Virus record (IMG/VR): IMGVR_UViG_3300017650_000001
Coordinates: 1 to 64,000 of that record
From: a virus
DNA: 64,000 nucleotides
Direction: 5' to 3' (one strand)
The notes beneath the pieces were generated by a model. That model had not been told where the DNA came from and searched no databases. It saw only the letters and a program-made list of their open reading frames with translations. This document shows positions 31,001-36,487 of this stretch, piece after piece. Position numbers and translations under genes: made by a program. The number at the start of each line of letters is the position of its first letter. Position 1 is the first letter of the stretch.

Positions 31001-31434
31001 GCTCGCGATGGATCGACCGGACCATGGTCTGTTGTCGATCCTGATTCCACGCTTGCTTATGAGGTGTCAATCAGCCTCAAAAACAAAGCTTCTTACACCT
31101 TCAACAGCATGGTTGACCCCAACTTGCTGCAATGGTGCAAAGTCCGAGAATTGAATGTTGAAACAACATCAATCCATCTTCATACACTTGAAGATTCTGC
31201 AAAGGAGAAGGACGGATGAAAACCATCAATATCTGCGGAATGCCTTACCGCGTACATTCTCCCAGCCTCTTTGAATCAACAGAAGAACCCATTGCGATCG
31301 GCTACAATGGATACGGATGGGTCATTGCAGTCCACAACAAGTGGGGCAAGCGTGAATTCACAACGCGCAATGACGCTGGGCAGTTCATCTTAGACAAATT
31401 CCTGAATAGCTGGAACGTTGTCAATCAGTGCTGA
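28050..31434 (+). other. Early/host-takeover cluster of small genes
   Basis: Plus-strand ORFs with good SD sites: 28050-28244, 28247-28432, 28442-28627, 28630-28845, 28857-29057, 29411-29770, 29835-30023, 30256-30570, 30669-30974, 31216-31434. Confidence 0.65.
29776..29814 (+). promoter_or_regulatory. Early promoter copy 2 (TTGCAA-N17-TAATAC) with a second CAATTG
   Basis: TGCTTGCAATTGTATTTCAACCCGTCTAATACAATTGTA. Confidence 0.75.
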
Positions 31435-31915
31435 TGCTCTCAACATCAGTCTCGTCAATCAAGACTTTGATTTTGTTATCAAGTAAAGACAACAAAACCT
31501 TCTGACGCTCTTTTGCTGACATGCGATCAACAAGAGCTACTTGCTGAGCAAATGGCCCCGTTTGTATCTTGACTTTGTCGCCGACCGACAATCTCGAAGC
31601 AGGAAGCTTGATATATCCATTGATCTCGCGTGAGCGAAGGCTGCTGATGACTTCATCACGGACTACCGCAGGATTGTTACCTGTCATCAATAAAGCTGCG
31701 ACGCCGTGCGTATTGTTTAAGCAAGCCCAGCGTGAAACGATTTCTACGAAGAGGTAGTTAGGGAAAAGTGGGATTTCTACATTAACCCAGCGCTTCTGTC
31801 GAAGTTTACGTTCTAAAAGCTTGGGCTGGTAATACAAGAAGCCTTGATTTTCAAGATTTCTAATAGCCATTTTCTCGCAGTTTGGATGAGTTCGTAGTGC
31901 TGTCCAGAAAGCCAT
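31421..31915 (-). CDS. NusG/RfaH-family transcription antiterminator
   Basis: NGN domain W..L.T.P..E..A..NL..QG, PLFPNYLFV, T.GV; KOW motif GDKVKIQTGPF. Confidence 0.9.
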   Translation of the reverse strand: MAFWTALRTHPNCEKMAIRNLENQGFLYYQPKLLERKLRQKRWVNVEIPLFPNYLFVEIVSRWACLNNTHGVAALLMTGNNPAVVRDEVISSLRSREINGYIKLPASRLSVGDKVKIQTGPFAQQVALVDRMSAKERQKVLLSLLDNKIKVLIDETDVESISTD

Positions 31916-32012: not shown

Positions 32013-32043
32013 AGCATTGTCGGCGAGCAAAAGGGGTTTTGCA

Positions 32044-33054
32044 ATGGCACATTTCGATCACACTTATGGTATTGAAATCGAGTGCTACCTTCCGGAAGGG
32101 ACTTCACGAGAAGACCTCGCCACTGCAATCAATTCTCGCCTCGGCGGACTGGGCACTTGTTCAGCTGAGCATTACAATCACAATACGTCGCGCAATTGGA
32201 AGATTGTCACGGACGGGTCGCTGGGCGATTATGCTCGCGGTGTTGAAATTGTCTCGCCGGTCTTATCGGGTGCAGCGTCACTCACTACCGTTGAAGTTGT
32301 CTGCCGCGCCTTGAACGATTTTGGTTGTTCCGTCAATAAGAAGTGCGGATTGCATGTTCATGTTGGTGTCGGTGCTGCTCCGTTGTCATTCTGGAAAAAC
32401 ATTGTATCGATGTACAGCGTCTTCGAGGGTGTTATTGACAGCATGATGCCCGCTTCGCGTCGCGGATCAGCAAATGCGTATTCCCGCACGATGACGGGAG
32501 TCCGCGTCAGCGATATCACAACCGCTGATTCTTTCGATCGCATCTATGGATTGCTGGGACGCGGACGCTACTCAAAGGTAAATATGGCTGCCTATCTGCG
32601 CCATAACACGGTTGAGTTCCGTCAGCATTCTGGAACGACCGATGCTAACAAGGTCACAAAGTGGACGGTCATGTGCTTGAAGATGGTCGATACCGCAATG
32701 GGTGCCCGCTTTAATCCTTTCGACTATGCGGTCGCTCCGCAGAATCGCGCGCGGATGGGAACCAAGAATTATCAGGTTGGCTCCATGCTGCTCCGTCCTG
32801 ACGGTGTCACTCCGCAGGAAGCAATGGCAGCGACTGGTTGGACGAGCATTTCAATGCCTGAGATGGCGCGTCTCTGCGGGATTGAGTATACAACTCAGAA
32901 GACTGGACGCATCACTCGTTACTTTGCACGCCAGTCTGCTTCTGAAGTCTCGGTTGATGCTTTCGCAACGCTGATTCAACTGACTGCAGAAGAGAAGTCT
33001 TATATGGAGTCTCGTATTAACGATCTGTCCAGTCATATCGCCTGGGCTGCATAA
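32044..33054 (+). CDS. Putative amidoligase (COOH-NH2 ligase) with a C-terminal HTH-like insert
   Basis: GIEIE, W.IVTDGSL, EIVSP, CGLHVHVG, RY.KVN, TVEFRQHSGT. Confidence 0.85.
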   Translation: MAHFDHTYGIEIECYLPEGTSREDLATAINSRLGGLGTCSAEHYNHNTSRNWKIVTDGSLGDYARGVEIVSPVLSGAASLTTVEVVCRALNDFGCSVNKKCGLHVHVGVGAAPLSFWKNIVSMYSVFEGVIDSMMPASRRGSANAYSRTMTGVRVSDITTADSFDRIYGLLGRGRYSKVNMAAYLRHNTVEFRQHSGTTDANKVTKWTVMCLKMVDTAMGARFNPFDYAVAPQNRARMGTKNYQVGSMLLRPDGVTPQEAMAATGWTSISMPEMARLCGIEYTTQKTGRITRYFARQSASEVSVDAFATLIQLTAEEKSYMESRINDLSSHIAWAA

Positions 33055-33362: not shown

Positions 33363-33869
33363 ATGCTCTACTTTGCTTATGGCAGCAACCTGAACGTCAA
33401 GCAGATGAAGTATCGCTGCCCGAAAGCTGTCCCGCTGGGCAACTTCTACTTGCGCGATGCTCGTCTACTATTCCGCGGTGTTGCGGATTGCATCTATCTT
33501 CCGGGTGCGGTCTGCCCGGGAGGGATCTGGTCAATCACGGGTGATTGCGAGCGCGCTCTTGACCGTTACGAGGGATTCAAGAAAGGCGATCCCAAAAGTG
33601 GAATGTATTACAAACAGATCATCAAGATTCGCAATGCGGATGGCGACGTCTCGACGGAGCTCATGATCTATCGCATGAACTCAACCGGGATCATGCCGCC
33701 GTCTCAGATGTATCTCGATACGATCGCTGAAGGCTATCGTAACTTTCGTCTTCCGATCAAGCGTCTGCGTCAAGCTGTGAAGCGATCTTACGACGACAAG
33801 AATCCGAGCGAGGTTGAGCGTGCTCGGTATATCCGCAACGGCAAGCCGCGTCTGGCTCGCATCGCATAG
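33363..33869 (+). CDS. Gamma-glutamylcyclotransferase-like protein
   Basis: YFAYGSNL..QM..RCP, LDRYEG, PS..Y...I..GY. Confidence 0.85.
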   Translation: MLYFAYGSNLNVKQMKYRCPKAVPLGNFYLRDARLLFRGVADCIYLPGAVCPGGIWSITGDCERALDRYEGFKKGDPKSGMYYKQIIKIRNADGDVSTELMIYRMNSTGIMPPSQMYLDTIAEGYRNFRLPIKRLRQAVKRSYDDKNPSEVERARYIRNGKPRLARIA

Positions 33870-34159
33870 GTTCAATCATGCGTCGATTCATTAACACACA
33901 TCCGATCGCGTATAAGATGGCAGCACCGGAAGCTATCGCTTTCGTCTACGTCTTGTGCGTGATTGGTTACCTTGTAACTTTTATTCGGTGAGGTCTGCTA
34001 TGTCAAATATTACGTTTGAACCTGCTGAATGCTGGGCAGGATGCACGTCAAGCGACTGTCCTTACAGTCACTTTGACACCTATCGCTGTGATGATGGATC
34101 AGCTCACTTCACAAGGAGAGACGCTGAATCTTGGATTTCAGATTCGAAAGGTCAAAGCA

Positions 34160-34297
34160 ATGGTAAAAAAGAAGAAACCAAAACAGCGCTCGGCAGAAGC
34201 TAAGGCACTGTCCCAGCCCATCTTCCGTCAACGAATAGTCAAGAATAAAAAAGCTTACACGCGAAAGGGCCGACGTAAATCGGCCCTTTCTTTTTGA
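34160..34297 (+). CDS. ArfA-like small basic protein
   Basis: ALSQPIFRQRIVKNKKAYTRKGR resembles the E. coli ArfA core [32 protein letters not shown] SD. Confidence 0.6.
   Translation: MVKKKKPKQRSAEAKALSQPIFRQRIVKNKKAYTRKGRRKSALSF
34263..34295 (+). terminator. Intrinsic terminator ending the plus-strand island
   Basis: GAAAGGGCCGA-cgtaaa-TCGGCCCTTTC-TTTTT. Confidence 0.85.
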
Positions 34298-34513
34298 CTA
34301 TCGGATTGTAGGAATGTGGACAGGTCCCACCGCACCAATCAATCCCAACAAAGCGTAAACGACAATCAAGACCAGTATAACGATCAAGATTACATTGATA
34401 ACTTGCTTGATGGGTTCAGGTAGCGGGATGAGTCCCAGAATTGTTGTTACTGCCCAGTAGATAACACCTACAATCAGCAAGTACACAACTAGCGAAATAA
34501 GAGCGCTTATCAT
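34298..34513 (-). CDS. Small two-TM membrane protein
   Basis: Two hydrophobic helices joined by IPLPEPIK. Confidence 0.7.
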   Translation of the reverse strand: MISALISLVVYLLIVGVIYWAVTTILGLIPLPEPIKQVINVILIVILVLIVVYALLGLIGAVGPVHIPTIR

Positions 34514-34567
34514 GCAAACACCTCTCTACAGGTAATGCAGAGAGGTGTCTTTTAGCTGCGGGCTTGT

Positions 34568-34822
34568 TTAATCTGGGTTCTTCCGAGTATGCCAGCTCCG
34601 CATCTCTTCCGCGATAGCATGAGCTTCAAGCACCTTGTCGTGGTTACATCCAACAGAGCGTGCATGAATAGCCCACTTCTCTACAAGATCCGCAGCTAAA
34701 GCATCTTGTGCACGAAGGATGAACACAGGCTCATCCGCTGGGACTTTCTCGTTGATGTAAGTAAAGCGATCAATCATCCTGATACCCCTTGATAGAACGT
34801 CGCTGATGCGTTCTTTATGCAC
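34568..34822 (-). CDS. Conserved phage hypothetical protein
   Basis: DEPVFILRAQD.LA...V..W motif. Confidence 0.6.
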   Translation of the reverse strand: MHKERISDVLSRGIRMIDRFTYINEKVPADEPVFILRAQDALAADLVEKWAIHARSVGCNHDKVLEAHAIAEEMRSWHTRKNPD

Positions 34823-35273
34823 CGCGTGAGTGATAGGGCCTGATCTGGTTCAAGCTAAGAGGGACGCATCGCTCGGGCAACTGTCCTTCTTCCCAGACAA
34901 CATCGATGCTGATGCCGCCACGGCTGTTCCAGAATCCTGCAATCCGCAGCCATTTGGGCTGGAGTTCGTCATAGAGACGCTTTCCAATATGGACAGTTAC
35001 GTCTTCATGAAAGCTTCCATGTCCACGGAAAGCAAAAGTCCACAGCTTGAGAGCTTTGGACTCGACAAGATAACGATCCGGAACATAATCAATCAGCAGC
35101 GTTGCAAAGTCAGGCTGACCCGTTACAGGACACAAAGATGTAAACTCAGGAATGGAAAACCGAGAAACGTAGTTCAATCCAAAATGGGGGTTGTCAATCT
35201 TGTCCAGAACGACCTTGTGGGGGTTAGTTTCTGCAACAGCCGATTGTTTTCCCAAATGCGTTAAAGCAGTCAT
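34815..35273 (-). CDS. queF: NADPH-dependent preQ0 reductase (type I)
   Basis: PEFTSLCPVTGQPDFA; QueF motif ESKALKLW; FHED; RGGI. Confidence 0.93.
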   Translation of the reverse strand: MTALTHLGKQSAVAETNPHKVVLDKIDNPHFGLNYVSRFSIPEFTSLCPVTGQPDFATLLIDYVPDRYLVESKALKLWTFAFRGHGSFHEDVTVHIGKRLYDELQPKWLRIAGFWNSRGGISIDVVWEEGQLPERCVPLSLNQIRPYHSRGA

Positions 35274-35500: not shown

Positions 35501-36487
35501 TCAAGCTACTTGAAGAATCGCAAAAGCACGTTTCTTCATTGCAGCGCCTTCACCAAACTGTGCAGACAGCCGGCGCTTATTGTCGTTTGCGATGCGATCA
35601 TGATCGACATAGCGCGTAACCGCCTGGAGAGCAGCCCACGCTGAATTGCGTCGAGCACCCTCATTGGTTGTCGTGTTGTAGGCGGCGAACAACGCAGTCA
35701 GCTGATTCTGCTTCCGCGTAGAAACCTCCGAGCTTTCCGCAGCGGAGTCATCCACATTCAGGATCTTCTTGAAGAAAGCCTCCACCTGATTTGCAGACAG
35801 ATGCACGCTCGACATTGCCTCACCCATCGCCTTGTAATCTTCGAAGCTCTGAGTAATGCGAGCCAGTTCTTCGCTGACCGCATCCGCATCGAACGTCGAG
35901 CAATGACGCGTCCGGATCACAGCACGCTTGTCCATCAAGCTGACATCCAACGTGTTATTGCAGACAGTGCGCGTCATCGATCCCTGATTAATGGTCGCGT
36001 AGGTGCCGTCATAAGATGTGCTCATCAGCAGACGCGCTGTGTGATGTTCGCCTGCAATGAACATCGGGTCGCGGAACAGTGCGGTTGCCCAGATGACGCG
36101 GCCGCCGAGAAGCGATCCGGCGACATCCAGCTGAAAACGCTCATCCACCGAAATGTAACGCTTGAACCAATCGAGAACCTCTGCCGGCTGCACCGGCTTG
36201 TAGCGATTCGAAACATAACCCAGCGGGGCGCCGTTGTCCGAACGTACAATGAAATTCTTGTTGGGGACTTGATGCATCCGCTGATCAAGATGGCCGAACT
36301 TTTCAGTGTCAAGAAAAGCGAAAGCCGGAACCTTGACAGCTTCCCATTCGAGGCCGGCTGCGGCAGCCCATTCCTCGATCGACTGACCCGGAAGCATCTC
36401 CTGCCCGAGGTGATGCCAGACATTCTGGCGCGAACCCAGGAAAGCGATGTTCGCGCGGTTGTTGGACATATCAATGTTGTGCGACAT
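35501..36487 (-). CDS. DUF932-family phage/plasmid protein
   Basis: WH.LG, AGL.WE, V..RY..VQ, AGSL.GG..IWA, SYDG, R.VCNNT, RH, DH. Confidence 0.85.
   Translation of the reverse strand: MSHNIDMSNNRANIAFLGSRQNVWHHLGQEMLPGQSIEEWAAAAGLEWEAVKVPAFAFLDTEKFGHLDQRMHQVPNKNFIVRSDNGAPLGYVSNRYKPVQPAEVLDWFKRYISVDERFQLDVAGSLLGGRVIWATALFRDPMFIAGEHHTARLLMSTSYDGTYATINQGSMTRTVCNNTLDVSLMDKRAVIRTRHCSTFDADAVSEELARITQSFEDYKAMGEAMSSVHLSANQVEAFFKKILNVDDSAAESSEVSTRKQNQLTALFAAYNTTTNEGARRNSAWAALQAVTRYVDHDRIANDNKRRLSAQFGEGAAMKKRAFAILQVA

Follow-up and report, generated by a model that had tools for sequence, protein, structure and literature searches.

The expression of arfA and brfA from non-stop mRNA is textbook knowledge, and the full-length product of E. 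coli ArfA is unstable. ArfA (YhdL; Pfam PF03889; PDB 5MGP, 5MDV, 5U4I, 5H5U, and 7OJ0) is known from gamma- and some betaproteobacteria. The mRNAs of both arfA and brfA are cut short by a stem-loop or terminator that lies in frame, and it is from these shortened messages that the proteins are made (PMC8012679, PMC3989581). BrfA depends on RF2 for rescue and is under the control of trans-translation (PMC8012679, PMC6881298). The tails of ArfA and SmpB share one site (PMC4245945). Among phages, g10 of Citromicrobium phage vB_CbaS-RXM has been annotated as ArfA (PMC8953757), and gp30 of the pelagiphage HTVC027P, also annotated as ArfA, has been reported to be transcribed during infection (PMC12753301); Brevundimonas phage Kikimora likewise has a gene annotated as ArfA. 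In the literature, we found no paper that tests a phage ArfA gene or discusses its mRNA end. The annotation of arfA in phages and the non-stop design of arfA and brfA are therefore already known, and the gene described here, P0001, adds a member of a loop-less subfamily.

P0001 lies in the window, the first 64 kb of a complete virus record of 103,620 bp with direct terminal repeats, and is the final gene of a plus-strand island. The island also encodes an amidoligase (Amidoligase_2 protein, 32017-33054), an HTH protein, and a gamma-glutamyl cyclotransferase-like protein (GGACT/AIG2-like, 33363-33869). Around it, the minus strand carries genes for a NusG-domain protein (31421-31915), QueF of the 7-deazaguanine pathway (34815-35273), and a DUF932 protein (35501-36487). 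The amidoligase and GGACT pair, together with QueF, suggests modules for peptide tagging and DNA modification. Outside the window, ARAGORN located 24 tRNA genes on the minus strand at 79322-85088 of the whole genome, and the phage puts heavy investment into translation and RNA upkeep. ARAGORN found no tmRNA in the whole genome, and no genes for SmpB or for RF-1-domain proteins (release factor/ArfB) were found in the phage genome; for all of these, the phage would therefore depend on its host. Megablast of the region against phage records gave no match, and the best protein match of the phage helicase gene, in an Edwardsiella phage, is 33% identical. A search of 33500-35000 with Rfam recovered no known RNA family. 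Near-identical DNA is present in 24 runs from soil, sludge, and wastewater, as contigs that carry neither RNA ends nor strand, and a single metatranscriptome contig of low depth covers 34261-34446, its end being not informative on the RNA end.

The immediate flanks of P0001 are both occupied. On the upstream side, a plus-strand ORF of uncertain status encoding a Cys-rich protein of 66 aa (34001-34203) overlaps the start of P0001 by 44 nt, and no Pfam family matched it. In a related strain, represented by a DNA contig, positions 33982-34183 (202 nt) are swapped for 173 different letters, with flanks that are about 95-100% alike. The swapped stretch corresponds to the Cys-rich ORF and the first 8 codons of P0001, forming a small swap cassette directly 5' of the conserved part of the gene. 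On the downstream side, a convergent minus-strand gene (34298-34513) encodes a hydrophobic, membrane-like protein of 71 aa, which matched no Pfam family. This gene is real because all six strain-variant differences within it are synonymous. Its stop abuts that of P0001 (TGA followed directly by CTA), so its transcript would cross the hairpin described below in antisense; on the minus strand, the stem is followed by just TTTC, with a T6 run 12 nt further on. In E. coli, arfA is also convergent with a membrane-protein gene, mscL, and antisense crosstalk has been reported there (PMC10070815). This shared convergence is probably a coincidence.

The P0001 reading frame occupies 34160-34297 on the plus strand and consists of 45 codons, from the ATG at 34160, followed by a TGA stop codon at 34295-34297; the encoded peptide is MVKKKKPKQRSAEAKALSQPIFRQRIVKNKKAYTRKGRRKSALSF. 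An earlier sequence-only reading of this DNA had given the same length of 45 aa but had placed the start at 34146, a position that belongs to the SD-like sequence GAAAGG (34146-34151, plus strand) lying 8 nt 5' of the ATG. Searching 1.84 billion representative proteins exhaustively with HMMER retrieved 28 homologues at E ≤ 1e-3 (best 1.1e-7), all of them 43-101 aa in length. The family shares the consensus K..R...AKALA.P.FRQR.V...K.Y.RKGR, after which the tails vary in both length and sequence, and the start methionine is near-invariant in the alignment. P0001 also matches PHROG 20887 (E 3.7e-8). A strain variant from a DNA run differs at six positions within the ORF, comprising five synonymous third positions and the substitution V27I; one of these differences falls in the loop of the hairpin and none in its stem arms. 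These comparisons indicate that P0001 is a real and conserved gene.

Comparison of P0001 with known structures and families pointed to ArfA. The segment from L17 to R39 (34208-34276, plus strand) matches positions 18-43 of PF03889, and the core reads P20-x-F-R-Q-R-x-x-K-N-K-K-x-Y-x-R-K-G. Among all PDB chains, E. coli ArfA is the sole match of P0001 (phmmer, E 0.004). A profile built from 29 family members matches ArfA in the PDB at E 6e-6, with the next match at 0.12 (HMMER), and alignment of the family to enterobacterial ArfA with hhalign gave a probability of 95.7% (E 8.4e-9). Individually, 11 of the 29 members match Pfam ArfA (best 1.6e-9) and 8 match DUF7230 (PF23876, best 7.3e-8), so that the family sits between two Pfam models. 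P0001 itself scored 17.6 bits against Pfam ArfA (E 0.0026), below the cut-off of 25.5, and gave no match to any NCBIfam model or, at E ≤ 1, to DUF7230. To our knowledge, DUF7230 and PHROG 20887 are families of no known function, and our literature search found no paper on DUF7230. The resemblance to an ArfA core proposed by the sequence-only reading is thus upheld by the PDB, profile, and hhalign comparisons; as an HMM comparison, it holds for the family profile and hhalign and not for the single sequence, which stays under the Pfam threshold.

Several differences from canonical ArfA were also seen. Both the HMMER and the hhalign alignments place a gap of three residues (GKG), relative to E. 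coli ArfA, between KNKK and Y.RKG, in agreement with the missing loop insert noticed earlier, and the spacing between KNKK and the tyrosine, previously given as two residues, is only one. The KGKGS loop conserved in canonical ArfA is absent from the whole short-loop subfamily to which P0001 belongs, a subfamily as yet without a name among curated models. The N-terminus of P0001 is unlike that of ArfA, and the counterpart of A18 is ambiguous, since HMMER pairs it with the family-invariant A14 and hhalign with K15. The Lys/Arg-rich second half, KNKKAYTRKGRRK, is present, and the tail after RKG has 7-8 residues, versus about 12 in active E. coli ArfA. On the basis of these alignments, we regard P0001 as a remote, non-canonical homologue of ArfA.

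Analysis of the 3' part of the gene revealed a hairpin of 11 bp with a 6-nt loop at 34263-34290 on the plus strand, which starts in the R35 codon and covers K36-G37. Its arms, GAAAGGGCCGA and TCGGCCCTTTC, enclose the loop CGTAAA; 7 of the 11 pairs are G-C, and the G+C core is formed by 34267-34273 and 34280-34286. The U-tract TTTCTTTTT (34287-34295, plus strand) has 8 U in 9 positions and overlaps the stop codon, its last T being the first base of the TGA. The RNA fold has a computed energy of -20.5 kcal/mol (z -5.14), and 0 of 200 shuffles were as stable; the hairpin ranks first of 26 terminator-like sites in 24-43 kb. With a G+C-rich stem, a short loop, and a U-tract, the predicted structure has the features by which an intrinsic (rho-independent) terminator is recognized. 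We rejected the alternative that the hairpin serves as an RNase III site of the kind present in E. coli arfA: at only 11 bp and with a U-tract, the hairpin fits better with a terminator. In a crude and noisy genome-wide scan, one other clean canonical terminator (at about 76596, minus strand) lies past its stop.

The position of this terminator relative to the stop codon determines whether the message would be non-stop. The sequence-only reading had set the terminator inside the ORF, with the core ending at 34286, the U-tract at 34287-34295, and the TGA at 34295-34297, and these coordinates proved exact. By sequence arithmetic, a 3' end located 7-9 nt beyond the G+C stem would fall at 34293-34295, without a complete UGA. 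Counting the four GAAA/UUUC pairs as part of the stem could instead move the ends to 34297-34299, so that the stop would be included. Moreover, the stop lies just 0-2 nt past the U-tract, which speaks against a non-stop reading, as a scatter of 2 nt would put the UGA on many transcripts. The claim of a non-stop mRNA is strengthened in one respect, the recurrence of a terminator before the stop in relatives, and weakened in another, the reach of the ends when the extended stem is counted; overall, the P0001 locus probably yields non-stop mRNA.

To place this arrangement in context, we compared the position of the terminator among relatives. In Sinorhizobium phage phiM12, a 10-bp stem and a T6 run finish 10 nt before the stop, and phages M7, M19, and N3 show the same arrangement according to the hit table. 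In L018, which is 67% identical to P0001, the stem AAAAGGCCGC/GCGGCCTTTT and a T-run coincide with the R-K-G codons, with about 41 further codons of open frame beyond the terminator. The viral and metagenomic loci L010, L012, L013, and L022 hardly differ between the ATG and the end of TTTTCACT, a stretch that includes the hairpin; beyond it they diverge completely, with in-frame stops at differing distances. In these four loci, it is the terminator and not the stop that closes the conserved unit. Across the family as a whole, the tails past RKGR are unconserved. A hairpin on the same codons, without a clear U-tract, is found in Citromicrobium phage RXM g10 and in an Alphaproteobacteria MAG. 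No in-frame terminator is present in Caulobacter phage Cr30, Brevundimonas phages Kikimora and Bajun, Roseobacter phage CRP-212, a Polynucleobacter-type group, three A+T-rich viral contigs (L049-L051), or several genome hits. In most of these, including Cr30, Kikimora, Bajun, and L049-L051, the stop comes immediately past RKG. The family uses two designs, one pre-truncated and constitutive and the other with the terminator in frame, and P0001 looks like the latter, with the first downstream stop falling at the end of the U-tract. Because several relatives, phage ones among them, stop normally after RKG, the family as a whole does not require gating by tmRNA.

From the observed ORF, its homology to ArfA, and the geometry and recurrence of the hairpin, we propose, at somewhat better than even confidence, that P0001 encodes a mini ArfA-type rescue peptide that recruits RF2, is made from mostly non-stop mRNA, and is gated by tmRNA. 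The mode of action would follow that of ArfA, on which the analogy is based (PMC4245945, PMC3989581, PMC8012679). Transcription would stop within the U-tract, at about 34293-34295, leaving the UGA incomplete and the mRNA mostly non-stop. The product of 44-45 aa would be tagged by the host tmRNA and degraded as long as trans-translation has spare capacity. Saturation of tmRNA, which could arise from a flood of cut mRNAs produced by infection or by host RNases, would let the peptide build up. On a ribosome that has stalled at the 3' end of an mRNA, the basic half could then occupy the empty channel, with host RF2 recruited by the peptide to free the nascent chain. Read-through of the terminator meets the UGA at once and would give the same 45-aa peptide; therefore, the gating would be only as tight as the terminator, and the switch is leakier here than in E. 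coli.

Three other explanations of the locus were weighed. That P0001 is no gene, and its frame a chance ORF over an operon terminator, is scarcely credible: a length of just 45 codons and a start overlapped by the upstream ORF would suit such a frame, yet it is already contradicted by the 28 homologues in the 1.8-billion-protein library, by the match of the family profile to ArfA, and by the strain differences, five of six being synonymous in the P0001 frame, and the near-invariance of the aligned start methionine across the family adds to this. It is unlikely, though still of appreciable probability, that an ArfA-like rescue peptide is made constitutively from normal mRNA, with the terminator serving as the end of the plus-strand operon, the stop read on most transcripts, and no regulation by tmRNA. 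The TGA at the extreme end of the U-tract fits this explanation, as would transcript ends near 34297-34299 if the extended 11-bp stem to 34290 is used. The same explanation is favored by Cr30, Kikimora, Bajun, and L049-L051, which stop directly past RKG without an in-frame hairpin, so that phages are evidently able to use an ungated, pre-truncated version, and by the stop of the minus-strand gene, which adjoins at 34298; as the convergent genes have no spacer, genome compaction alone could explain the overlap. However, the closest relatives with DNA (L018, the L010 group, and phiM12) have their terminator on the R-K-G codons, well ahead of the stop. Furthermore, judging from the general behavior of intrinsic terminators, the rU:dA-rich hybrid would favor release at 34293-34295, and 3' exonucleases usually trim transcripts back toward the stem.

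A loss of the rescue function itself appears distinctly improbable. According to this explanation, P0001 would be an ArfA homologue that no longer rescues and acts as a channel-occupying competitor of SmpB/tmRNA or of ArfA, or in another ribosome- or RNA-binding role. The absence of the GKG loop and of the ArfA N-terminus, the score under the Pfam ArfA cut-off, and the matches of 8 of the 29 relatives to DUF7230 are in line with such a change, and ArfA and SmpB tails do use the same site (PMC4245945). In contrast, neither the FRQR..K..K.Y.RKG core nor the basic tail has been lost, and the persistence of an arfA-style in-frame terminator in several branches is best understood if rescue capacity gates the factor. 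A phage would, in addition, lose ribosomes if rescue were blocked. We keep the tmRNA-gated, RF2-recruiting peptide as the preferred explanation.

The distribution of the family bears on its possible role. Searches of a phage collection with P0001 and the RXM ArfA (tblastn) gave matches almost all in phages of Alphaproteobacteria. A survey reported arfA in 0 of 2,376 Alphaproteobacteria (PMC11633108). Matches to the family profile occur in 24 of the 301 genomes sampled (about 8%) from the class of an Alphaproteobacteria MAG. Because the matched genomes belong to a class said to be without arfA, RF2-dependent rescue may be under-counted. One hit in a genome of this class, L039, has a clean terminator inside the ORF, about 25 codons before the stop. 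It is possible, though on balance doubtful, that the loop-less mini-ArfA, present in phages of several lineages, many on Alphaproteobacteria, is a phage-owned sensor of tmRNA saturation and a translational counter-defence, with the family perhaps also serving as an alphaproteobacterial rescue factor. In its form with the terminator in frame, such a sensor would activate RF2-dependent rescue just as non-stop messages accumulate through host RNases, abortive-infection toxins, or mRNA decay induced by the phage. The counter-defence purpose is one that we purely infer.

If the proposed mechanism is true, the phage carries its own back-up rescue factor, and the host tmRNA decides when the peptide accumulates. 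Ribosome rescue would then join the phage-borne translation functions, among them the 24 tRNA genes of the same genome, and the gene would offer a way to ask whether phage growth is held back by non-stop stalling, or whether host defence acts on such stalling. Being tiny, the gene can be synthesised, and every step of the mechanism is open to existing E. coli assays.

Comparison with the known systems shows both likenesses and differences between P0001 and ArfA. DUF7230 and PHROG 20887 resemble it as short basic peptides with the same core. The RXM g10 protein is likewise a phage-borne ArfA relative, about 51% identical, with a hairpin on the K-G codons inside the ORF; unlike P0001, RXM g10 and the Kikimora protein keep the canonical KG(K/R)GS loop, and the Kikimora gene differs further by an ordinary stop directly past RKG, as in Bajun and Cr30. 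BrfA (YqkK) of Bacillus subtilis is similar in that a rho-independent terminator before the stop gives a non-stop mRNA, but it belongs to a Firmicute chromosome; ArfA was the sole rescue factor recovered when the PDB was searched with the peptide and the family profile. An arfA that is unannotated on a Salmonella enterica subsp. houtenae contig (L026), a bacterial sequence filed among the phage records, has a frame open to about 90 codons and a hairpin of roughly 20 bp that starts about 8 codons past RKG, whereas in the phage gene the hairpin lies directly on the R-K-G codons. P0001 and ArfA are both small, basic peptides that contain the core L..P.FRQR..KNKK..Y.RKG(K/R), with one residue before the tyrosine in P0001, and both genes carry a stem-loop within the reading frame, for which a non-stop mRNA is established in arfA; RF2 dependence and tmRNA gating would be further likenesses. 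In contrast, the phage gene has 45 codons versus 72 in arfA, and its peptide lacks the GKG loop and has an unrelated, Lys/Arg-rich N-terminus. The RNase III substrate of roughly 20 bp in arfA is replaced by an 11-bp intrinsic terminator, and the peptide has no hydrophobic tail, so that the predicted read-through product would be the active peptide itself. Finally, the gene described here is phage-borne.
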